Assembly (NCBI GenBank): GCA_965248435.1
Contig: OZ252100.1
Location: 1,088,001 to 1,152,000, forward strand
From: Candidatus Latescibacterota bacterium
Lineage (GTDB): Bacteria > Latescibacterota > UBA2968 > GCA-2709665
Reading direction: 5' to 3'
DNA: 64,000 nucleotides
Shown: piece after piece, positions 21,746-32,791 of the stretch
Layout: every line of letters begins with the position of its first letter
How positions within the stretch are numbered: position 1 is the first letter of the stretch
Position numbers and translations under genes: made by a program
The notes under the pieces: generated by a model
Seen by the model: only the letters and a program-made list of their open reading frames with translations
Database searches by the model: none
What the model was told of the DNA's origin: nothing

Positions 21746-24178
21746 TTACTCCTGAATTTTGAACCTCGCGATGGCCCTGGCACTCTTGCCGCTGTTCTCG
21801 TCCGTAACCTTGATCCTCAACAGCTGACGACCCGGCTCCGATCGAGACATATCCAGCTCCAGATATCCCTGCTCATCAGACTCAGAGCCGATCTGTTCGT
21901 ACTCGATCGTTATAATGCCGCGCTCTTCGCGCTGGTCGAGCAGGTTACCGAATCCTCCAAGGATGCGGGCCCCGATTGACTTCCGTTCCAGCGACCGAAC
22001 CTCATACGACACGCGATACTTCGTGGCTCCGAACTCATCCTGCTTGAGGTTGTAAATCTCATAATAGATGAAAACCGGCTGGCCTGGCAGATAGGCCTTC
22101 GATGCCATAGGAACAACAGCAATGTCTCCCTTCTGGAATCGCCCTTGATCTGCGACTTCGATCGCGCCGGCCAGCTCGATATCGCTCAGCATGAGCGATT
22201 CGCCACCGTATCCCTTCACGATCCTGTTCTGACTGTAAACCTGCGATTTCCCGGAACTCCGATCCATAACCTGCACTGCCAGGCGATAGCTACCCGGCGA
22301 GAGTTCGACCCGGTCCATTTCCGGGATGAATGCCCCCGCGGACTTCTCCACATCCCCCCTCACGAGCAGGGGCATGTCGTGGCTCACCCGGTGCACTTCC
22401 CTGTCGGATGCGTCGTAGATGGCCACGCCTCGCTCGAGATGGACGCTCTGTGCACCGTCCTCTGTGGGCACAACCGTAAGATCCTTCATCGGAATACCGA
22501 AGTAGATCTCCAGCCCACTCTCCTTCTCTTTTCCCTTGAACGCGGCCGTGTAGAAGTAGAACTCGAGTATACCAGAGACAAAGTCAGGTTCGTACGTATT
22601 CGGCGTCTTGAGCGCCACCCGCTGGACGACGACCTCGGGGTTCATCGCGCGCCAGATCTGCGCTGTTCGGTCTGTCCCTAGTGGCATCCTCGCGTACTCG
22701 TAGGATCCGCTCTGCCCTCGCTGTACGAATGTCACCTCGATCCCGGGTCCCACATCGGCATAGATCCAGTACTCCCAGGATGCGTGATCGGCGACAGGGT
22801 AGACGGGCCACCCGAGGATCGTTGCCGTTCTCAGCCTGGACTCCTCCACGATCTGCTGACCTGACCGCCCCTCCTCCTCCCCCTCCGGATCCTCGTCAAC
22901 CGAGAGCCTCCCTTCTGCTACGAATCCCGCCCGTCTCGTCATCCTCTCCCGGTCTCGGATCAACTGGGGAATCGCCTCTCCCGCGCGGTGGATCAGGCGG
23001 TCTTTGAGGGCAACCAGCTTGGGGTCCCGCTCAAGTCGTATGTCCTTCAAACGGCTCACGTGATCCGGTTCCCCGTACCGGATATAGGCCTTACCCCTGT
23101 CGTCCCAGGGATAGGTTGCGGAACCGTAGTGCTCCCTTGCGTGGGCGACCCGGCGATAATGCTCCAACAGCCGTTCGTTCGCTTCTGTCACAGGGGCTGG
23201 GTCTCGATCCCTCCAGAACGTTTCCGAAATCGCCTTTCGTTCCTCTTCAGATGCCGCTTCGAAGCGCTGAAGCTCCCTTCCTCCGGCCACGAGTCTCAAG
23301 TCGGCATAGAGCGCCTGCTCTTTCGGGTCCAATGCTTCGATGTAGGTTTCGAACAAAGACTGGGAACGGTCGAAATCCCGCCGGTCCTGATGGACCGAAG
23401 CCAGCTCAAGCACCGCGTGACGCCGATACGGATTGGGTGTCACGGCAACCCCTTCGAGCACTGCCGCCGCCTCGTCGTTTCGACCCTGGTGGTTCAGCAC
23501 GACACCCAGCCGAAGCTGGGCGCCAAAGTGCGCTGGATGCACATCGACCTGCCGCCTGTAGGCGGTTTCCGCTTTCGAGAACTCTTCAGCCGCTTCGTGG
23601 ATGCGCCCGAGCTGAAACAGGGCGTCTGGGTGATCGGGATCGATCTTCAGTACGTCTTGGTACGCACCAAGGGTCTCGCTGCTCACATACTGCTGAAAGG
23701 TCTGCGCCAGGTTGTACTGCGCTTCCGCGTAGGCCTTGTCAGATCGAAGGGCGTCCCGGAAGAACCCGATCGCCTTCCGAAGCCCCTTGTCTTTCTCCCG
23801 GTAGACCAGCCCCAGGCCGTTGAAGGCCGGCGCGAATTTCTTCTGTTTGCGCAGCGCCTGCCTGAAGGCCTTTTCTGCTTCCTTTAAGTTTTTCTGTTGC
23901 AGGTGGATATGACCCAAGCCGACGTACGACTGCGCGTGCCTGTCGTGGATCCCGATGGCTTTTCGGAACCGATCAGCGGCCTCACCAAGCTGCTCCGCCT
24001 CCTGAAGCGCGAGGCCTTCCTTATAGAGGGCCTCGGCACGGGCCTCTGTTGAGTCCTCTGAAGCTGTGCTCACGGGAACAGCTAGCCAGACGACGATGAA
24101 AGCGGTAGATCGGTATAGCCCTAACAACAGGCACCTCCAACATTGTCGTGTTCGAGACTCGACGCGATCCCCATCCAA
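21746..24178 (-). CDS. TPR + GWxTD-domain protein
   Basis: N-terminal TPRs; 'FWRDRDP.P.TEANERLLEHYRRV', 'PWDDRGKAYIRYGEPD'. Confidence 0.85.
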   Translation of the reverse strand: MDGDRVESRTRQCWRCLLLGLYRSTAFIVVWLAVPVSTASEDSTEARAEALYKEGLALQEAEQLGEAADRFRKAIGIHDRHAQSYVGLGHIHLQQKNLKEAEKAFRQALRKQKKFAPAFNGLGLVYREKDKGLRKAIGFFRDALRSDKAYAEAQYNLAQTFQQYVSSETLGAYQDVLKIDPDHPDALFQLGRIHEAAEEFSKAETAYRRQVDVHPAHFGAQLRLGVVLNHQGRNDEAAAVLEGVAVTPNPYRRHAVLELASVHQDRRDFDRSQSLFETYIEALDPKEQALYADLRLVAGGRELQRFEAASEEERKAISETFWRDRDPAPVTEANERLLEHYRRVAHAREHYGSATYPWDDRGKAYIRYGEPDHVSRLKDIRLERDPKLVALKDRLIHRAGEAIPQLIRDRERMTRRAGFVAEGRLSVDEDPEGEEEGRSGQQIVEESRLRTATILGWPVYPVADHASWEYWIYADVGPGIEVTFVQRGQSGSYEYARMPLGTDRTAQIWRAMNPEVVVQRVALKTPNTYEPDFVSGILEFYFYTAAFKGKEKESGLEIYFGIPMKDLTVVPTEDGAQSVHLERGVAIYDASDREVHRVSHDMPLLVRGDVEKSAGAFIPEMDRVELSPGSYRLAVQVMDRSSGKSQVYSQNRIVKGYGGESLMLSDIELAGAIEVADQGRFQKGDIAVVPMASKAYLPGQPVFIYYEIYNLKQDEFGATKYRVSYEVRSLERKSIGARILGGFGNLLDQREERGIITIEYEQIGSESDEQGYLELDMSRSEPGRQLLRIKVTDENSGKSARAIARFKIQE

Positions 24179-24260: not shown

Positions 24261-25253
24261 CTAAGCTAAGAAGCGTATGGATCCTGCGTCAGATTCGATC
24301 CATTCAATCAAATGGGAATAAGCCTCAATCCAGGCCAAAGCCTGATCGTTGGCCCGCTCGAGAAGACCGATCTTCAGCCAAAGGGTCAGCCCGCGAACCA
24401 GGGAAAGGGTCAAGACGTCGGGGAGAAGTCTGGCCTCTTCTTCGGTCAGACCCGCGGTTTGATGATACGTTTGCAGAAATGTGATGCGATCCTCAGGACC
24501 GAGCGGCGAACTGCCAATCACGGCTTGAAAGAACAAAACAGCGTATGCAGTATCGAACAGCCTTGGGGCAGGTCGAGCACCGTCCAGATCCAGGATACCC
24601 GAGATCTCAGGACCCTTGAACAAAAGATTCTGACCCCGAAAATCACCGTGAATGATCGCCCTTGGCAGCGATCCGAGTTCGTCCATGTTCAGATCGTTGA
24701 CGACTCGGTGAAGGAGACAACGCAACTGCTTTCCTTCGCTCGGCAGTCGACTCATGTCGTCGGCCCCAAGATCATTCCAGATTTTGCTGGCAGCTTCGCA
24801 CAAATCGTCTGTGAAAGATGACGATGAATGTCCAGATGGCGGCATTTCGGAGGTAGCGAGGTGCATCTGTCCCAGTAGGTCAGCCGCCGCGTTCAATTGG
24901 CTTACATCTCCCGGAACGTAGCTCTCTCCCTCCAGGAAGGGCCAGAGCAGGAGGACGTGTCCCTCGACGGACAACAGCGTGGATCCATCCAGGCCCTGAA
25001 TCGGCAGGGGCGCCGGGAATCCTGCAGAACCGAGGTGCTCGCTCACCGAGACGCCGAATGCAAGCTGCTTGGCATTCACCTCTTTCTCCTGATAAACCTT
25101 CAGCAGCCAATCGCCACCCTGGCCTGACAATCTCGCAGTCGTGCTGAAATATCCTTGTTTGACCTGTTCGATCTCTACCGTCAGGCCGTAACGCTCTGTT
25201 ACAAACTGCCTCAGACGATGCTCAGAAAGATTCAACTTGCTTTGATAAGGCAC
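24261..25253 (-). CDS. Phosphotransferase (APH / homoserine kinase type II family)
   Basis: 'LLKVY', Brenner motif 'IIHGDFRGQNLLF', 'ILDLD'. Confidence 0.85.
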   Translation of the reverse strand: MPYQSKLNLSEHRLRQFVTERYGLTVEIEQVKQGYFSTTARLSGQGGDWLLKVYQEKEVNAKQLAFGVSVSEHLGSAGFPAPLPIQGLDGSTLLSVEGHVLLLWPFLEGESYVPGDVSQLNAAADLLGQMHLATSEMPPSGHSSSSFTDDLCEAASKIWNDLGADDMSRLPSEGKQLRCLLHRVVNDLNMDELGSLPRAIIHGDFRGQNLLFKGPEISGILDLDGARPAPRLFDTAYAVLFFQAVIGSSPLGPEDRITFLQTYHQTAGLTEEEARLLPDVLTLSLVRGLTLWLKIGLLERANDQALAWIEAYSHLIEWIESDAGSIRFLA

Positions 25254-25273: not shown

Positions 25274-26164
25274 TCAAAACCTTTCCGACACATCCGCCTT
25301 GAGAAATTCCAAAAACATATCAGCCGCCTGAGACAGCCGGCCCCCGGCTCGTCTTACCACACCCACTTTCCGCATCGGGAGATCCTTTACTCGCGCAGTT
25401 GCAAGTTTATCGCTCTGAATCTCTGAACTGACGGCCACCTTCGGCACGATGGCGATGCCTAATCCAATCTCTACGAACCGTTTGATCACCTCTATGCTTC
25501 CGAGTTCCATAGCGACCTCGGGGACAACACCTGCATCCAGGAAGGATCGGTCCATCAACGCTCGGCTCGTACTGCCGCGTTCAAGCACGAGCAGTGGACG
25601 TGCCCCGAGGTCCTTCAGCGCGACCGTGCCCTTTCCAGCGATGGAGTGACCGTGAGGGAAAATCGCCACATCTTCGCGATCGAAAAGCGGATAACTTTCC
25701 AGCCGAGGCTCTGCGACAGGAAGTGTAGCCAGGCCAAAATCGACAACGCCATCCAGCACGAGCTGTGCTACCCCTGGCGACATCCTGTCCATAAGGCGAA
25801 TCTCTACACCGGGGTAGGCCCCCCGAAAAGCCGTAACGGAGTAGGGCAGGACATAGGCGCAATTCGTGTCGCTTGCGCCGACCGAAACCCGACCTACGCG
25901 GAGTTCTCTCAAGGCAGACACTTCCTGTCTCGCGGACTCGACCGCATCAAAGATCTCCTCCGCCTTCCGAAGGAGCAGGCGGCCGGCCTCGGTCAGGATG
26001 ACCTGCTTCCCGCTTCGCTCGAACAGCCTTTCACCCAGTTCCTCCTCGAGCGCCTTGACCTGCAAACTCACGGCCGGCTGAGTCAGGAAGAGCTTCTTGG
26101 CAGCACGGGTAAAACTCTTCTCCCGTGCCGTTTCAAAGAAGCCCCTTAGCTGATCGAGATCCAT
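25274..26164 (-). CDS. LysR family transcriptional regulator
   Basis: 'SFTRAAKKLFLTQPAVSLQVKALEEELGERLFER' HTH. Confidence 0.95.
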   Translation of the reverse strand: MDLDQLRGFFETAREKSFTRAAKKLFLTQPAVSLQVKALEEELGERLFERSGKQVILTEAGRLLLRKAEEIFDAVESARQEVSALRELRVGRVSVGASDTNCAYVLPYSVTAFRGAYPGVEIRLMDRMSPGVAQLVLDGVVDFGLATLPVAEPRLESYPLFDREDVAIFPHGHSIAGKGTVALKDLGARPLLVLERGSTSRALMDRSFLDAGVVPEVAMELGSIEVIKRFVEIGLGIAIVPKVAVSSEIQSDKLATARVKDLPMRKVGVVRRAGGRLSQAADMFLEFLKADVSERF

Positions 26165-26223
26165 GTCGACTAATCCGAGAAACAACGACGCGTATGTGAA
26201 TAAATTGAATTAATGCTTAAAGT

Positions 26224-26501: not shown

Positions 26502-26816
26502 TCAGTTCCTCCTTTCTCCGAGCTCATCGAGGATGTTCAACCAGCGCGTTTCATATTCGGCAAGTGCGGCCTTCCAGGCCCTCGGGGCACAGAGTCCTCT
26601 CTGCAATTCAAGGGCCCTGACATCTATGGTCTGCTCAGCCACTTCGACCTCTGTTAGAACCTCCGGGTCAAGCGAATCGATGCTACGATCGCTGAGCTCG
26701 TTAGAGATTCGGTCTACGACCCTCCGGAACTCGTCACTGAGCTCTGTGAGGGCGGCGTGATTGGCAGAGTAAGTTTCCATGATCGGCTCCCGAAAGGCAT
26801 TTTGATCGGCTGACAT
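26502..26816 (-). CDS. Small acidic helical hypothetical protein (104 aa)
   Basis: ATG preceded by AAGGGTGA and a near-consensus promoter; downstream terminator. Confidence 0.7.
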   Translation of the reverse strand: MSADQNAFREPIMETYSANHAALTELSDEFRRVVDRISNELSDRSIDSLDPEVLTEVEVAEQTIDVRALELQRGLCAPRAWKAALAEYETRWLNILDELGERRN

Positions 26817-26840
26817 ATCGAAGGATTCACCCTTGCAAAT

Positions 26841-26869
26841 AGTATACTAAACAGATGTTCAGGTGTCAA
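26841..26869 (-). promoter_or_regulatory. sigma70 promoter with a LexA (Cheo)-like box in the spacer
   Basis: TTGACA-cctGAACATCTGTTTag-TATACT, 17-nt spacer. Confidence 0.7.
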
Positions 26870-27003
26870 GGGTGACTTTTCATTTTAATTGAAATCAATT
26901 AAATATGTATCACATTGATAATAATATAAATATATGGTTTTATTAAACTCGATTCTGGGAGTTCACGACCTGCAGGTAGGAAATCGGTCCAGAGTCAGGA
27001 AAC

Positions 27004-27190
27004 AAAAAAACCCCTTTCCCGATCCAGGGGCTTTTTGGTGGGAGGGAAATCCAAAAAGCGTGCTCGGGAAAAGGGCCGTCTTCAGCCCTTATACGCCCCG
27101 GAGTAGGCCGGGGTTGCATAAAAACAGGATCCCCGGCCATCCCACCCCTAATATGTCCGAGGATCCCAATTGGGCCATCCCATAGCCCCA
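27004..27190 (-). ncRNA. Candidate ~185-nt structured small transcript, possibly encoding a 29-aa peptide (27089-27178)
   Basis: TTGACA-N17-TATATT promoter at 27195-27223, several hairpins, long terminator hairpin followed by T7. Confidence 0.55.
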
Positions 27191-27328
27191 CCAAAATATA
27201 CAACGTCCTATGCTTTTTGTCAACAGGGATTTACGCCCATAACCGCCTGACTCCCTCCCCGGATAGGGTGGTATCACCCTTCCCTGTCATCCCGGGCCTG
27301 AACGGCCGAGTTCCGAGGTCAAATTCCT

Positions 27329-28658
27329 TCAGGCGGCCTCCATCTCCCTGAACCGTCGCCCAACATACCTCACAGCCGTCAGCCACAAGGTAAGGATCAC
27401 CAGGGTGAGCAAAGACAGCCAGCGAAGGCTGCCAAACCCCGAAGCCAGGGTCGTAATCAAAAGGCTTAGACCAACAGCGACCGCCTTCGCGAATCGCTGG
27501 ACGAACATATCGATAAACGCTTTGGCCTTGTATTTTTCCTCCCTGCTGGTCGGTACATAAAGCACCTCTTTGGCCGACTGATTGATGGAATAGCTGAATC
27601 CGTTGTCACACGTATTCAACGCACTCCCCAATAGGAGCACGGGCGCCACGAAAAACCCGGCCGAGCCCAGCAAGGCAGCAACGGGCAAGAACAACAACGC
27701 GACCCCGACCCCGAAGCGGGTCATCACAAAGCTCGTCAAAAACAGCTGAACGAAAAGCGCGATCCAGTTCGTAAACGCAAATACCGATGCAAAATGCGCC
27801 CCGATTTCCGGTCCATCGAGATAGTGGGATACCGTTGCCGAAAACTGAAAGTCCATAATCGTAGATACCATCTCGTAGAGCCCCACGATGGCTACGATGG
27901 AAAGCAGGTATGTCGATCTGAAGACCAGCCTGGCGCCTTCAAAGGCCGGATTGCCTCCTGGTACCACGGATTCCGGCTCCGCCTCCGTGGCTGGGAGGTT
28001 CCCCGCAACCCTCCGGCCCACCAGCGACGCAATTACCGCGATCAAAGCCGATTCCCAGACAGACCCACAGCCACTCGGACATACTCAGTTCTTCTACCTT
28101 GGTCCTAAGCATGGTCGAACCGAAGGTACCCCCCAGCACGCCGCCGAGTCCGATCACACCGTAGAGGCGCTTGGCTTCATCGGGTACCACGCTGTCGTTC
28201 AGGAACGCAAAGAAGGTGGCGACCATAATCGTACTGTAGAGATCGCCGAAAAGATAGAATGTCCACACCGTAAAATCCCCGGGGGCATCCAACACGAAGC
28301 TGTAGAGTAAATAACAGACAGCAAAAAACGCTGAAAAGATATACGTCAGCTTTTCCCGCTGGAAAAAACGCACGAGCACGGTAAACACGGTCACGGCCAC
28401 GAAGGCCACTCCCATATTCAGCACCTTCGCGATCAGCTCCGCCTGTGCCGCGTCCAGATGCCAGGCCATCAGATCAAACCCAGTCTGATCGTAATACCCG
28501 ATGAAAAGGCCCTTCTTGAGGGGCTTCAAGATCCAGAACGTGGTTATCACCAAGAAAAAATAGAGAAACATCAAAATCGCCAGGGGTGCCTCTTCCCGGC
28601 GGATGTCAAGAATTTGCCTTAGGGGGTTGCTGGACTGGGCCAAAATAGCTCCTATCAA
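27329..28658 (-). pseudogene. NTT/TLC-family (Npt1-like) ATP/ADP translocase, split by a single frameshift near 28045
   Basis: 'FWILKPLKK.LF', 'EAKRLYG.IG.GG.LG', 'YSINQSAKEVLYVPTSREEKYKAKAFIDMFVQRFAK'; removing one T in ggcTTTgatc joins the two ORFs. True lesion or sequencing error. Confidence 0.82.
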
Positions 28659-28778
28659 CGAATCGAGTTCAGGTTACTGTCGTTTATTCCTTCAGCCTTT
28701 ACTCATCAATCTTGAATCTTCAATCCGCAATTTGCAACGGTTCCGGTACCCGTGTTTTGGTTTCCCGGTACCCTGTTT

Positions 28779-30470
28779 CTAGCTCTCTCGCTCCACGCGC
28801 ACGATTTGATACCGCCCCTGCTGCCACGCATAAAAGTAAACGTTCGTCGCCTTGCCCCAACCCGACCTACCCGGTCGCCTTGCTTGAATCCTGAACCCAT
28901 AGTATTTCCGTGGTGGCAACTCGGCTGGCACTTTCAGCGTAACTTCACCTCGATGCATTCCTATCGGACCTACGGGGTTGCCTTCTGCATCGATCAGCGT
29001 GTATCGATACGTTGTCCCTTCGGCTGAAGCCAAGTTTCCATTCACGGCCTGATCCTCAAACCGAAGTCCATCCGGATCTATCCAGAATTTATCCAACGGG
29101 TTGATTTTGTCAAACCAGTACTTGCCGATCATATCTCGCCGCTCGATCAACAGCCGCGTCAACTCGGCGGTGGCGTCAGGGTTGGAATAGTGCCCGGTCT
29201 GAACCATGGCCGCGATCTCTTCATCAGAGAACGACATGACGATCTTGGCTCCCCAATAGCCGTCTCGTGCTGTGCATCGTTCGAATGCAGGGTTGGGATA
29301 GGTCGGAACCCACCTGCCCGGCCGGAACGTCTCGTTCTCAAAGTAGCCGAGTTCCGGATATTTCATTGGAAGGGGCTCGTCCCACGCCTTCCGGTAGAGC
29401 CCGAGAGAAATCAACGATAGTCCAACCGTTCGGGCATCCCATAAGTACTCGTTTCCGTATTTGGGCTTGTGCGGCATCAGATTGTTGCTTCCGAAGGTCG
29501 ACCCCATATCAATGATATAGTGTTTCAGATAGCGTCGCCCTTCCTCATCGGCTACGTACATGTCCAGCGTGTTGGCGGCCCGCCGGTCCGCGTCGTTCAT
29601 CCAGGAACCGATCACCCGCAGCCCCCTGAGTTCCCTGCGATGCTGGTGCCTTACCCGGTCGTTTGGGTCGTCCCTTCGCTTGCTGTGATAGTTGAACACA
29701 CCCGCGGGGATGCCGCTCAGGAATCTGCTGGCTACACACCGCAGTCGGCCGTCCGACTGCGGGATGATGTTATCCAGGGTGCCCCGCACGTCAGACCGAT
29801 TCATCGATCGCTTTCCACCCCGACCGTCCGGCACCCTCGCCTTCCGTCCAATCTCTAGAATGGCCGGGTCGAAGGTAACGACGGAGTTTGACGGAACGTT
29901 GTAACCGGCCGCGTGGAGGATCTTTGTCGCAATCACCTCGGCGGCCGAACCCATCTCGTTGTTCCCCTCAGAATCGAACTTGAGCAGGAACAGCGCGCCT
30001 TTTGGATCTCTGATCGTGAACCCGGCCGTGCCGCCTTCGAATTTTCCAGCCACAATCTCCCAGGACCCGCTGGTGTCCGGCTGGGCAAGGCCGGGCCCGC
30101 GCCTCAGTTCATCCAGGCTCATCCGCTCTAGGAAGTGACGATTCGTAAACCAGGAGGAGTTGGGCACCTCGTCCAATGCGTTCACATTGTCCGCTTCCTG
30201 CACGGGCGCAACCCCCAGGATGTTGCCTGTACGTCGGGCGGTCCAGCCCAGGTCGAGCAGCTTGCCGAATTCGTAGAACAGTGTGTGATCGATCACGTCC
30301 CAAATCTGGTTCTCTTCCATCTCTTCGGGCTCTGGAATATGCCGGTTGTCTGGATCCGCCCACTTGATCGGGTCTGTAGTCAACTTCGGGCTGCTGGCGC
30401 AGCCGCTCAGCAGAAGCAAACACAGCACGCTCCAGTACGTGCTCACCGTTCGGTCAAACGCTGATCTCAT
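28779..30470 (-). CDS. Lipoprotein with atypical kinase-like (PI3K/PI4K/HipA-type) motifs
   Basis: Lipobox LSG-C; 'EGGTAGF', 'LLKFD', 'SAAEV', 'NDADRRAAN', 'IIDMGSTFG'. Confidence 0.7.
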   Translation of the reverse strand: MRSAFDRTVSTYWSVLCLLLLSGCASSPKLTTDPIKWADPDNRHIPEPEEMEENQIWDVIDHTLFYEFGKLLDLGWTARRTGNILGVAPVQEADNVNALDEVPNSSWFTNRHFLERMSLDELRRGPGLAQPDTSGSWEIVAGKFEGGTAGFTIRDPKGALFLLKFDSEGNNEMGSAAEVIATKILHAAGYNVPSNSVVTFDPAILEIGRKARVPDGRGGKRSMNRSDVRGTLDNIIPQSDGRLRCVASRFLSGIPAGVFNYHSKRRDDPNDRVRHQHRRELRGLRVIGSWMNDADRRAANTLDMYVADEEGRRYLKHYIIDMGSTFGSNNLMPHKPKYGNEYLWDARTVGLSLISLGLYRKAWDEPLPMKYPELGYFENETFRPGRWVPTYPNPAFERCTARDGYWGAKIVMSFSDEEIAAMVQTGHYSNPDATAELTRLLIERRDMIGKYWFDKINPLDKFWIDPDGLRFEDQAVNGNLASAEGTTYRYTLIDAEGNPVGPIGMHRGEVTLKVPAELPPRKYYGFRIQARRPGRSGWGKATNVYFYAWQQGRYQIVRVERES

Positions 30471-30507
30471 ACCCCTTCTTTACCTCCACGCCTTGAACAC
30501 GAAAGGC

Positions 30508-31974
30508 CTAAAACGCCTGCTCCATAACCAGCCCTACCAGCGCCTTCTCTTCGGCGCTGTGCCCCACTCGGATCTTGCCCAGGAGCCCGATCTCGGTTCG
30601 GAGGGAGATTCCTCCTCCCCACGATGTTCGAAAACCGCCTCCCTCGATCTCATCAAAATCGTCAAATATCTGGGTCTCATCCCAGAAAACGAACGCGTTC
30701 CAGGTATCCCAGATCGGGTACCGGTATTCTACGCTGAAGAGCAGTGCCCCCTGACCCCTGAAGTACCCCCTGCGGTATCCACGGGCCGAGGTGCTGCCCC
30801 CTAAAAGCACAAGATCGGTATATGGAATCGCGTTGTCATCCGCACTGCTCACCTTCTCCAGTCTGGCACGAAGCGCGAGGATCCTGTCCCGCCAGAACAG
30901 GGTCACATACCGCGACAGCTCAGCCGCGATCCGGGTGAACTTCACCTCCTCCGACCCGCTCACCCACTCCGCTTCCGCCGCAATCAATCCCCCTCCCTCT
31001 GGATACCCCAGATCCCTGTAGGAATGGTAGAGCCCGTTCGAATAAGTCAACACCCGCCCCGGCAGTACATAGTTCAGCGGGAGCAAGATTTCCTGAACTG
31101 GCCGCTTATGGTCCCGGTCGTCATAGGCGACACGCCCCCCGAACCGGTAGAGATCGATCTGCAGGCCCAACCCGTTCAGCGCGTTTGCCCGAGCCGTTGA
31201 TCCCGGGTGAGTCAGCGGGCCTGGAGGCCCCTCCCGCTGCCGCAGGTCACGCCGTCCGTAGCCCGCCCAGACGTCGATGATGAAATTGCGTTTGTGAGTC
31301 GCCAGATCGCCCGCATTCAGCCGCCAGCCCAGCGTAGTCCGGATGTCCGCTCGCTCGATCTGGTAGAGTCGGATGTCGTCTTCCCGAACGGCTGCGTTGA
31401 CCGTGGCGCTGCGGTTGCGCGTTCGTAGGTATTCCCCTTCGAACTTCCACACGAAACTGCTGCCAAGCAGGCTCGGGTCCAGATACACCCCCCCTGCCAT
31501 TTGCCCACGTCCTCCCGCGTAGATGAAGAAGCCTTGGAACTGCTTTCCGTTTCCCCAAAGGTCGGTGTGGAACAGGCGAGCGCCTCCGCCCGACCCGGTC
31601 TCTCCTCCAAGCTGAACCTGTGGGAAAACTCCAAACGTGCCCGCTTCGTTCGTGAAGAATTCAGAAAATTTTTCCGCGAGCTTGCCTCGTTCCGCGCGAA
31701 TGGCAAGCATTCCCAAGGGAATGAACAGCGAAGAGTAGACGGTTCGGGGCAGAGCCAGCAGGAAGTTTGGCGATGGGGAACGATACACATCGGCACTGTC
31801 AACTTGCCCAGCCTTCGAGATGTCGTAGGGGCTATGTCGCGTCAATGATCCTGTGGAGTTGTGCAGGTGGAGGGAGTCTGCAGAACTGCTATCGGCGTCA
31901 AGGGGTGAAGGAAGGACGAGCGCCTGCCCCAACAAGACACCTGAAATACACATCGGGATCCAAATTTGCTTCAT
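30508..31974 (-). CDS. Omp85 (BamA/TamA family) outer membrane beta-barrel, apparently lacking POTRA domains
   Basis: Signal peptide; 'LLGGSTSARGYRRGYFRG', 'SVEYRYPI', terminal Phe. Confidence 0.82.
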   Translation of the reverse strand: MKQIWIPMCISGVLLGQALVLPSPLDADSSSADSLHLHNSTGSLTRHSPYDISKAGQVDSADVYRSPSPNFLLALPRTVYSSLFIPLGMLAIRAERGKLAEKFSEFFTNEAGTFGVFPQVQLGGETGSGGGARLFHTDLWGNGKQFQGFFIYAGGRGQMAGGVYLDPSLLGSSFVWKFEGEYLRTRNRSATVNAAVREDDIRLYQIERADIRTTLGWRLNAGDLATHKRNFIIDVWAGYGRRDLRQREGPPGPLTHPGSTARANALNGLGLQIDLYRFGGRVAYDDRDHKRPVQEILLPLNYVLPGRVLTYSNGLYHSYRDLGYPEGGGLIAAEAEWVSGSEEVKFTRIAAELSRYVTLFWRDRILALRARLEKVSSADDNAIPYTDLVLLGGSTSARGYRRGYFRGQGALLFSVEYRYPIWDTWNAFVFWDETQIFDDFDEIEGGGFRTSWGGGISLRTEIGLLGKIRVGHSAEEKALVGLVMEQAF

Positions 31975-32075
31975 CCGGCCACCCAAAACGCGCTTTCAAC
32001 TTTCAAGATCAAACGCTTAACTCCGTCAAGACGCAAGCCGGCACATCCAAATCACTCGACCAGAGACCTTTACGC

Positions 32076-32791
32076 TCACGGAGCAAAGACCTGAACCCGG
32101 TTGTTAAACACGTCGGCTACGTAGATTCGACCCTGCGAGTCCAGTGCGATTCCTGCCAGCGACTCGAGACCTGCGTCCACTGGAAAGAAGGGGGAAAGGC
32201 CGGAAAACTGAAACACCCCCTCCTCTGTACCGAAATCACCCCACTCGGTGAGTAACTCGCCGTCCGAAAACACTTTCACTTCAGACTGGATCGCGTCGAT
32301 CACGAAGATGCGACCATCTTCACTGACGCGGAATCGACGATAAATCCTCGCATCTTCAAGGGCTTCAGACACCCATATGAGATCCTCTGCGACGGCCAAG
32401 TTGAAGGCAGCCGAGGGATCCTCGGCCTGAAATCCATATTCTCCAACCCGGATTCGCTCGTGCCCCACCTGGGAGCAGGTCGCCTCTGCAAGCCGGACGA
32501 AGAACTCCCGATCATCGGAAACGCCTGCCATAGCCTGCATGTCGACGAAGATGGGAAGAAACCGACACCGAGCCGACCGTTCAGGATCTGGAATAGGATG
32601 GATGTCTTCCCGCTCCGCCGTTCGCCGACGAAGAGGAGGACGCACCCCTCAGTTTCCGCGACCAATCGCTAACGGGCATAGGCGAAATCCTCCTCACGCC
32701 CGAAGAACAGGTTCGGGTCGCGGACTGGATTGCCCGTGATGAACGGATTCGGGGAAATGGGAGTAAATTCGGTCGTGTCTTCAGATCCCAT
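32076..32791 (-). pseudogene. Degraded chimera: AAA/STAND-like ATPase N-terminus joined to an NHL-repeat C-terminus
   Basis: 'NPFITGNPV...FFGRE', in-frame TAG at 32669-32671, Walker A 'GERRSGKTS', frameshift near 32558, then 'GIALDSQGRIYVADVFNNRVQVF'. Confidence 0.78.

Follow-up and report, generated by a model that had tools for sequence, protein, structure and literature searches.

Can a bacterium operate a kinase-like enzyme outside its cytoplasm, and if so, how would such an enzyme obtain its nucleotide? In the textbook view the periplasm is devoid of ATP, and the envelope processes that take place there are thought to be powered indirectly. The question is raised by three head-to-tail genes on the minus strand at positions 27329-31974 of a 64,000-nucleotide (nt) stretch of contig OZ252100.1 from a Candidatus Latescibacterota bacterium (assembly GCA_965248435.1; the whole stretch is called the window below). 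They encode an Omp85-like protein, a protein of 563 amino acids (aa) which we call KIN, and a TLC-like carrier, with intergenic gaps of 37 nt (Omp85 to KIN) and 120 nt (KIN to carrier). To judge from its structural model, KIN belongs to the protein-kinase-like superfamily; it is predicted to be exported and lies outside any described family. A functional link between the three gene families is well supported. We propose that they form a three-part envelope module in which the exported kinase-like enzyme would be fed with nucleotide by the carrier and would have a dedicated POTRA-less Omp85 partner, a reading to which we give a probability of roughly 0.45. The genes and their parts are as follows.

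30508..31974, minus strand: Omp85-family barrel without POTRA (ATG start, 488 aa; a TTG start at 31986 is possible and would add 4 aa)
28779..30470, minus strand: putative exported kinase-like lipoprotein KIN (563 aa), the core of the system
27329..28658, minus strand: TLC/NTT-like carrier, whole split gene (two open reading frames, ORFs, in different frames)
27939..28658, minus strand: N-terminal piece of the carrier (239-aa ORF; PF03219, 30.6 bits)
27329..28045, minus strand: C-terminal piece of the carrier (238-aa ORF in the other frame; PF03219, 56.8 bits)
28044..28047, minus strand: frameshift site of the carrier (two letters absent in comparison with near-identical strains)

The initial annotation of this locus had already described three co-oriented, closely spaced genes; its coordinates and the shared orientation stand, but the carrier is not one ORF; a frameshift near 28046 had been missed.

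The fold of KIN was assessed on an AlphaFold2 model (predicted local distance difference test, pLDDT, 85.8; predicted template-modelling score, pTM, 0.87; 38-row alignment) that was searched with VIA-align against 48,161 chains. The top 14 rows are all atypical kinases (Z 9.2-13.0, 212-262 residues aligned). CtkA is found at Z 13.0 (220 residues aligned, root-mean-square deviation 3.9, model residues 130-460), followed by Fam20C and Hydra Fam20 (Z 12.0-12.5), CotH and PI4KII-alpha (both Z 11.2), actin-fragmin kinase (Z 10.6), HipA (Z 9.9) and MavQ (Z 9.2). Foldseek placed Fam20C first (E 1.9e-4), with CtkA and PI4KII also among the top rows and SidJ listed as well. Residues 457-551, beyond the kinase-like part, gave Z-scores of 7.6-8.9 to many fibronectin type III (FN3) and cytokine-receptor domains in VIA-align. 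The middle protein had been read as kinase-like from its motifs, and the predicted fold agrees with that reading. The features of KIN are these.

30399..30470, minus strand: predicted signal peptide and lipobox L-S-G-C (Cys24), from the translation
29103..30113, minus strand: predicted atypical protein-kinase-like domain, residues ~120-456 (VIA-align, Foldseek)
28782..29102, minus strand: predicted C-terminal FN3-like beta-sandwich, residues ~457-563 (VIA-align)
29979..29981, minus strand: codon of K164, the beta-3 Lys in LLKFD (invariant in alignment A1; 30/32 in alignment A2)
29625..29669, minus strand: family-specific motif DDPNDxxxHxHRRELRG, just before the catalytic loop (invariant in A1 and A2)
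29571..29594, minus strand: catalytic-loop-like D293-A-D295-R-R-A-A-N300 (family consensus NHxDxxxxN)
29502..29513, minus strand: DFG-like I-D321-M-G (family consensus IDFG; D321 in 29/32 of A2)

The lipobox and every kinase-like motif quoted in the initial annotation are indeed present in the KIN translation (FEGGTAGF 144-151, LLKFD 162-166, SAAEV 175-179, DADRRAAN 293-300 and IIDMGSTFG 319-327). The motifs follow the canonical order of Gly-rich loop, K164, the helix-C acidic residue E178, D295-x4-N300 and D321, where the equivalence to kinase residues is drawn from order, spacing and secondary structure and not from a residue-level structural alignment. Their conservation in homologs, on which the kinase reading had been made to depend, was found as well: A1 shows no exception at K164, D295, N300 or D321, and in A2, which is made up of 32 KIN relatives at 32-56% identity, each of the four is retained by at least 90%. 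The wider consensus, NHxDxxxxN together with IDFG, is that of an HxD/DFG-type active site. In the family-specific motif that precedes the catalytic loop, D268, D271, H275, R278, R279 and R282 are invariant in both alignments, and the motif is possibly a substrate- or phosphate-binding site. Three members of A2 (P0184, P0186 and P0238) have lost the DFG-like Asp, in part together with the catalytic loop, and are likely pseudokinases within the family.

KIN belongs to a large family of proteins without a name. Relatives scored at E <= 0.001 number 3136, or 2826 representatives at 50% identity; all are unnamed or annotated as 'hypothetical', and a Pfam domain was found in none of them. By record title they come from Latescibacterota, Calditrichota, KSB1, Rhodothermales, Balneolaceae, Zixibacteria, Gemmatimonadota and others, to which the ESM Atlas adds clusters from Myxococcota and Acidobacteriota; the family is present in 0/14 control genomes. 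Pfam offers no family for the KIN of the window, even with the threshold relaxed to E <= 10, and NCBIfam offers none either. Specifically, the Fam20 profile PF06702 gave no match at E <= 10, and none of the sequence families Fam20 (PF06702), HipA (PF07804, PF20613), CotH and PI3_PI4_kinase was matched at cut-off. Two of three scanned relatives show sub-threshold matches at the N-lobe, to HipA_2 (17.5 bits, cut-off 27, E 0.0026) and HipA_C (13.4 bits, cut-off 30.5, E 0.062). In the ESM Atlas KIN falls with unnamed clusters at 0.98, the nearest named ones being Fam20C (0.79), HipA_2 (0.78) and four-jointed (0.77), which we treat as leads only. A phmmer search of KIN against PDB returned nothing relevant, and the sole PDB match of a profile made from the 32 relatives, a methyltransferase at E 0.92, was taken as a chance hit.

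Export appears to be a general property of the family. The lipobox of KIN follows a hydrophobic run and fits the pattern [LVI][ASTVI][GAS]C, lipidation being predicted from the sequence. When 235 full-length relatives were sorted with a crude regular-expression pattern, 89 were found to have a lipobox-like N-terminus and 122 another hydrophobic N-terminal run, while the remaining 24 have N-termini that look like signal peptides by eye. Some relatives depart from the usual layout. Nine of them (P0270-P0278, 1122-1164 aa) bear a C-terminal extension of ~600 aa, and P0270 and P0273, the two of these that were scanned, have no Pfam match (P0273 is from an Acidobacteriota metagenome-assembled genome, MAG). 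P0264 (955 aa) carries a GT4 glycosyltransferase N-terminal to its kinase-like part, a misfit with export unless the gene model is wrong. Two tandem barrel-kinase pairs, or a second kinase-like copy adjoining the first, are seen at L026, L029, L076 and L012. One relative (L028) is filed under a Heimdallarchaeota MAG, but its contig is only 2 kb long, and a binning error is therefore more likely than an archaeal gene.

Are the three genes neighbours elsewhere? Gene neighbourhoods were compared in 80 KIN loci, sampled as one genome per species, and adjacency was counted by tblastn, for Omp85 in the 73 loci with at least 1200 nt of flank and for TLC in 69 loci. An Omp85 match lies within 600 nt upstream of KIN on the same strand in 64/73 loci and anywhere in the locus in 67/73. 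A TLC match lies within 600 nt downstream of KIN in 27/69 loci, downstream on the same strand in 39/69 and anywhere in the locus in 43/69. A second lineage, found in soil metagenomes, has the order TLC-KIN-Omp85; there, an Omp85 match lies within 700 nt downstream of KIN in 33/45 loci and a TLC match within 2 kb upstream in 21/47. That two gene orders keep the same three families together argues against mere inherited synteny, and the arrangement of the three genes is far beyond chance.

A search among longer proteins also revealed fusions of two kinds. The carrier is fused to KIN in P0279, P0281, P0282 and the open frame of L086, which share 48-58% identity with one another, and KIN is fused to Omp85 in P0280 and P0283 (52.6% identical). 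In both kinds the domain order is the reverse of the gene order in the window and the same as that of the second lineage, in which the genes are mostly separate (1 fused case, L086, among 27 loci with both matches). In the carrier-KIN fusions a basic patch and one additional hydrophobic segment separate the TLC domain from the KIN part that follows it; the additional segment was read from the junction sequences because hydropathy counting of the helices proved too crude (12, 14 and 15 segments). The usual topology of carriers of the major facilitator superfamily (MFS) is 12 transmembrane helices with both ends inside, and with a thirteenth segment the KIN part of these fusions should therefore be on the periplasmic side. 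In 3/4 carrier-KIN fusions the extra segment ends in a lipobox-like G-C, so that later cleavage is possible.

The phyletic pattern was analysed in 151 genomes of the phylum, of which 37 contain KIN. An orthologue of the short carrier (E <= 1e-91, the next match being at 1e-46) occurs in 20 of the 151 genomes, and all of these are KIN-positive (20/20). When any TLC match is considered, 33 genomes have both KIN and TLC, 4 have KIN without TLC, 22 have TLC without KIN and 92 have neither (hand count). All ten tested KIN genomes that have no TLC in the KIN locus carry TLC elsewhere (10/10). The co-occurrence of the three families in other genomes, which had been named as a check of the proposal, is thus seen in neighbourhoods, in the phyletic pattern and in both kinds of fusion.

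KIN is single-copy in the 5.67-Mb genome of the window, which also contains the adjacent carrier and three TLC-HEAT genes, so that there are four TLC loci in 5.67 Mb, one of which abuts KIN; the estimated contamination is 7%. Neither KIN nor any TLC match was found in the 18 other genomes of the same family, a genome of the same genus included. The module may therefore have been gained here by transfer.

The upstream gene encodes an Omp85-family barrel. It scores 49.2 bits with PF01103 (cut-off 24), although it falls far below the cut-offs of the NCBIfam families BamA (25.6 bits, cut-off 297) and Omp85_fam. The protein begins with a predicted signal peptide and an acidic tail rich in Ser and Thr. 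In an AlphaFold2 model (pLDDT 75.4, 33-row alignment from neighbouring genes) the chain is disordered up to about residue 67, where this tail ends; residues 71-107 form two helices, and 114-483 form a barrel of ~16 strands. In Foldseek this model matches TamA (4c00, E 3.4e-14) and many BamA barrels, with matches spanning E 3e-14 to 2e-10. The barrel had been described as POTRA-less, with which both sources are consistent: it has no PF07244 match, and no POTRA fold is present in the model. The consensus of the barrels paired with KIN (alignment A3) keeps the conserved RG[FY]-type loop motif of the Omp85 family. A variable acidic Ser/Thr-rich tail follows the signal peptide in these barrels (in that of the window, Ser and Thr account for 14 of its 49 residues); it could be a substrate, or merely a flexible linker.

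Docking of the lipoprotein on the barrel, part of the original proposal, was addressed by complex prediction with barrel residues 68-488 and KIN residues 25-563. The pair scored 0.56, whereas the best of three controls scored 0.00; at least 43% of contacts are shared between runs, with a pLDDT of 82 or more for the partner. The mark used is reached by 58/80 solved complexes and by 2/110 mismatched pairs, and scores of 0.60 or lower comprise just 7 of the 80 solved complexes plus both of the passing mismatches. The prediction thus points to docking of KIN on its barrel, but weakly.

Is the third gene a nucleotide carrier? Both pieces of the window gene exceed the PF03219 cut-off of 21, and two intact orthologues reach 80.3 and 91.7 bits. 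The stricter family TIGR00769 (ATP/ADP antiporters in the strict sense) gives 54.9 and 21.9 bits for the two pieces, below its cut-off of 387.2. The intact orthologue from L002 matches the solved ADP,ATP carriers 9j3j (E 3.4e-11, 46 bits) and 9j3n, and its alignment with 9j3j spans residues 131-445, including the C-terminal K-x-K-x-K-A-x-I-D motif. Relatives of the carrier are single ORFs of ~445 aa. The window pieces show 75% identity to residues 11-207 and 74% identity to residues 206-445 of the L002 protein, and six intact orthologues align across the break. An intact 12-helix carrier is thus absent from the window, the gene being frameshifted near 28046. In contigs of the runs X5, X6 and X7, which are from other studies, AG is inserted behind 28046 and the gene is intact; their depth is low (2.8-3.3), and the X6 contig appears to be the same as that of X7. 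Run X1, which looks like the source (depth 34), matches the window at 28046 and has no extra AG. The deletion of two nucleotides is therefore probably real in the source population, while near-identical strains keep an intact gene. In this genome, either the module is decaying or it is served by one of the three TLC-HEAT paralogues elsewhere in the chromosome.

Taken together, an inner-membrane nucleotide-carrier homologue is linked to a putative exported enzyme whose kinase active site appears complete, from which we infer that the carrier would supply the nucleotide of the enzyme and that the barrel would be its outer-membrane partner. The proposed module would consist of an inner-membrane NTT/TLC-type carrier, an exported enzyme of atypical kinase fold and a dedicated POTRA-less Omp85 barrel. 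KIN would be exported by its signal peptide, in the window as a lipoprotein, and would reside outside the cytoplasm, bound to or beside its barrel. There it would transfer phosphate from a nucleotide, in the simplest case ATP, to a substrate that is exported or part of the envelope, while the carrier would bring the nucleotide across the inner membrane and take the spent one back. The predicted fold, the conserved residues, the export signals and the genomic linkage are what the analysis shows; catalysis, ATP as the cargo, its outward direction, docking on the barrel and the substrate are inferred. In the initial annotation the translocase was held to export ATP and return ADP, feeding a periplasmic or surface kinase docked on or displayed by its own barrel. 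We retain this mechanism as the best available reading, at slightly less than an even chance. A narrower version, in which a trans-envelope machine would let the NTT-type carrier hand cytoplasmic ATP directly to a periplasmic kinase located under or in its own POTRA-less Omp85 barrel, is put forward tentatively and somewhat against the odds.

Several observations weigh against the proposed module. No sequence profile ties KIN to a kinase family (Pfam, NCBIfam, and sequence and profile searches of PDB), its fold match is distant (~10% identity; Foldseek TM-scores 0.27-0.54; E 1e-4 at best), and 3/32 diverse relatives lack D321 or other catalytic residues. Six KIN loci have no Omp85 (L014, L015, L017, L018, L019 and L077), one of them on a short contig and the other five in genomes assembled to chromosome level or large contigs; 26/69 loci have no TLC match within ~6 kb. 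Among KIN-positive genomes, 4/37 are without a TLC match; in three of these four the KIN match is a fragment, and completeness is 81-85% in two. The genomes are related and not independent, and the two-by-two counts therefore overstate the association of KIN with TLC; furthermore, TLC-like genes in 22/114 KIN-negative genomes imply that such carriers have other uses too. In the window itself, KIN and the barrel are intact, but the carrier gene beside them has a frameshift. Any ATP that reached the periplasm could be lost through porins. Between the carrier and characterised NTT proteins the similarity is remote (46 bits to 9j3j; 54.9 bits against 387 in TIGR00769). Of those proteins, PamNTT1 favours ATP import, the reverse exchange being negligible according to the available part of PMC1951785, and some relatives of the NTTs transport different compounds, for example NAD or S-adenosylmethionine, to judge from titles cited in PMC5381601.

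What else could the three genes be doing? The barrel might be a two-partner-secretion (TPS) or type V translocator that moves KIN to the surface or releases it, so that KIN would act on matrix, competitors, prey or a host with external or carrier-released ATP. The tight barrel-KIN adjacency (64/73 and 33/45 loci) would suit such a role, as would the enzyme lying N-terminal to the barrel in P0280 and P0283, like an autotransporter passenger, the PlpD-type patatin-Omp85 gene nearby in L022, and the C-terminal FN3-like domain, which is typical of surface or extracellular proteins. CtkA is a secreted protein; this nearest fold is, by its PDB title, a proinflammatory kinase of Helicobacter pylori. 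However, known TpsB and type Vd barrels carry POTRA, which the window barrel lacks, and KIN has neither a TPS nor any other Pfam domain. In the carrier-KIN fusions, which have a transmembrane segment between the two parts, the enzyme would remain anchored in the inner membrane if the lipobox-like site is not cleaved, and secretion alone does not explain the strict co-occurrence with an inner-membrane nucleotide carrier (20/20). We consider secretion or display unlikely, if still a serious contender. KIN could also perform another chemistry or none: it might be an AMPylase or resemble a glutamylase, it might as a lipid or glycan kinase modify lipid or polysaccharide of the outer membrane, or it might be a pseudoenzyme with a regulatory role towards the barrel, the carrier in each case bringing the co-substrate. 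Lipid kinases (PI4KII-alpha at Z 11.2, MavQ at Z 9.2), a sugar-bound Fam20 entry and SidJ are indeed among the fold matches, the invariant basic H275-x-H-R278-R279-E-L-R282 is a conceivable binding site for a lipid or glycan that is phosphorylated or anionic, and the three pseudokinase-like members among 32 relatives would be in keeping with a regulatory part. Against this stands the full set of canonical phosphotransfer residues in canonical order, and the idea overlaps with our preferred explanation except in the acceptor and the transferred group; as a separate explanation it appears distinctly unlikely.

Alternatively, the traffic could be inward: the barrel would admit external nucleotides, KIN would bind or process them in the periplasm, NTT-type carriers would import them and exported phosphoesterases would trim them. 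Dissolved nucleotides are a resource in seawater, and the window stretch is present in metagenome runs from seawater and other marine samples. The calcineurin-like metallophosphoesterases, which are found as exported lipoproteins in 17/80 KIN loci, share their Pfam family with periplasmic 5'-nucleotidases, and a carrier fused to a binding domain would suit the handing over of a ligand. A mere binding protein, however, would not need the catalytic Asp and the metal-holding Asn and Asp that are kept in at least 90% of relatives. Omp85 barrels are, to our knowledge, protein insertases or translocators and not solute channels, and the window barrel retains the Omp85 RG[FY]-type loop motif (A3 consensus); we also know of no MFS carrier that uses a binding protein. 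Characterised NTTs are importers in the parts of PMC1951785 and PMC5381601 that were available to us, which favours such scavenging, yet on balance it seems improbable. That the genes have no joint function at all, being neighbours by descent or chance with each acting alone, would account for KIN without an adjacent barrel or carrier in L014, L015, L017, L018, L019 and L077, and for the broken carrier in the window. It is at odds with the two gene orders that keep the three families together, with fusions of both kinds in diverged sequences, with one of only four TLC loci in 5.67 Mb abutting KIN, and with a carrier orthologue confined to KIN-positive genomes (20/20), and can hardly be credited.

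How does the proposed module of carrier, kinase-like enzyme and barrel compare with known systems? Its parts belong to known superfamilies; as a system it is without a described bacterial counterpart. The eukaryotic secretory lumen needs a nucleotide carrier to bring in ATP. Fam20 kinases working in this carrier-supplied lumen are the closest analogy to the proposed working of the module. Like KIN, the Fam20 kinases (Fam20C is the Golgi casein kinase; 4kqa, 5yh0, 5xom) have an atypical kinase fold, are exported by a signal peptide and work outside the cytosol. Unlike them, KIN is bacterial, at ~10% identity, and has an extra conserved N-terminal region, an FN3-like tail and an Omp85 partner. 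A second comparison is with the HipA toxins, which are cytoplasmic and paired with antitoxins. CtkA, from the group of HipA/CtkA/HipT kinases (3akj, 4pu3, 5k98, 7ab3), is the best structural match of KIN and two relatives show the sub-threshold HipA matches mentioned above, but the KIN family differs in its signal peptides, its genomic context and the lack of a family match at threshold. CotH (5jda), PI4KII-alpha (4hnd) and MavQ (7m7a) share with KIN the D-x4-N catalytic loop and the DFG-like metal Asp; they do not share a sequence family with it, and their acceptors (coat proteins, phosphoinositides) are only hints for the substrate of KIN.

The barrel resembles TamA/BamA, TpsB and type Vd PlpD in its 16-strand Omp85 fold, and its pairing or fusion with an enzyme recalls PlpD-like patatin-Omp85 proteins. 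It differs from them in having no POTRA and a partner without a TPS domain. As for the type Vd comparison, the window genes are separate, and the fused P0280 and P0283 show only an Omp85 domain in the scan. That BamA can hold a lipoprotein is indicated by the title of PDB entry 6t1w. Compared with NTT/TLC proteins (PF03219; 9j3j, 9j3n; PamNTT1), the module carrier is remote, shorter (~445 aa) and found in free-living bacteria. Genes for NTT, NTT-HEAT and NTT-HEAT-cNBD proteins in free-living bacteria have been reported, with functions stated as unknown in the available part of that paper (Major, Embley and Williams 2017, PMC5381601). The TLC proteins with HEAT_2, and with or without cNMP_binding, that directly follow the short carrier in many KIN loci have these same architectures; an exported kinase or Omp85 partner of NTT-HEAT proteins is not mentioned in the part of PMC5381601 available to us.

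Phosphate can also be added on the periplasmic side of the envelope by other means. The donor of LpxT is undecaprenyl diphosphate, not ATP. LpxT, an inner-membrane enzyme which is not of kinase fold, phosphorylates lipid A in the periplasm (PMC2229476, as far as its available part goes); the proposed module would resemble it in the side of the membrane on which phosphate is added but, unlike it, would need nucleotide outside the cytoplasm. The author of the initial annotation knew of no characterised system of this kind. In the full-text literature, with subscription journals and supplements outside the search, we likewise found no report in which an exported kinase is associated with both an Omp85 barrel and an NTT carrier; the reverse direction of transport, however, is not a new idea, as an NTT passing ATP outwards has already been speculated for a ciliate endosymbiont in the part of PMC7969357 available to us.

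The wider neighbourhood in relatives contains further recurrent genes. Downstream of the short carrier, many loci encode a TLC-HEAT protein, a protein or domain that binds cyclic nucleotide monophosphates (cNMP), a response regulator and a 7TMR-DISM histidine kinase, and a TLC ORF of at least 600 aa is found in 24/80 KIN loci. Examples of TLC-HEAT proteins (~900-1060 aa) that flank the module are L002:3724-6894, L010:3623-6799, L051:9052-12244 and L044:1938-4670, and the cNMP-binding domain is either fused to the TLC-HEAT protein or encoded by the next gene. The calcineurin-like metallophosphoesterase genes present in 17/80 loci nearly all encode lipoprotein signal peptides; those at L004:4835-5944, L055:7723-8964, L039:9052-10221 and L044:7653-8792 adjoin KIN, and they fit a kinase/phosphatase pair outside the cytoplasm. 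In the genome of the window the sole metallophosphoesterase copy is only distantly similar and lies far from the module (G000:C1:2809832-2810611, 27.7% identity). Large proteins of ~900-1050 aa at L045:5595-8611, L039:10356-13503 and L022:9969-12686 form one BLAST cluster; a Metallophos domain stands at the N-terminus of one member, a second member matches Omp85 below threshold (22.8 bits, cut-off 24), and these proteins may be enzyme-barrel fusions. The patatin-Omp85 (PlpD-like) gene of L022 lies at L022:7598-9919.

In the window, just downstream of the carrier, are a LysR-like ORF (24261-25253, minus strand; named by eye) and an APH-family phosphotransferase (25274-26185, minus strand; PF01636, 89.8 bits). 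The latter is a cytoplasmic-type small-molecule kinase, and its adjacency to the module is not conserved in relatives. Next to these, the 810-aa product of 21746-24178 (minus strand) combines TPR repeats with a GWxTD domain (PF20094, 32.7 bits). A scan of 26800-32400 for promoters and terminators found sites no more common than in shuffled sequences (4 versus 2.8 and 4 versus 6.2, respectively) and is thus uninformative on operon structure. One metatranscriptome run contained 0.05 of the sampled words of the window stretch.

What would the module mean for these bacteria? The KIN family itself adds a large kinase-like family, with its 2826 representatives, that is absent from Pfam and NCBIfam, and the locus provides an example of a POTRA-less Omp85 barrel paired with an enzyme. 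The TLC-HEAT neighbours give a genomic context to the NTT-HEAT-cNBD proteins described in the available part of PMC5381601. By record title, cultured carriers of the module are Halalkalibaculum sp. DA3122 (L051), which has the full set of Omp85, KIN, TLC, TLC-HEAT and cNMP-binding genes, and Aliifodinibius salipaludis WN023 (L044); since cultured Balneolaceae carry the module, the idea can be tested at the bench. A conserved carrier together with an exported enzyme that has an intact kinase active site would challenge the view of an ATP-free periplasm. If the proposal is true, the module would provide the first function for the NTT and NTT-HEAT-cNBD proteins of free-living bacteria, would let ATP drive the phosphorylation of exported or envelope substrates in a compartment held to be free of it, and would be a bacterial counterpart of the eukaryotic secretory pathway with its Fam20 kinases and lumenal ATP carrier.

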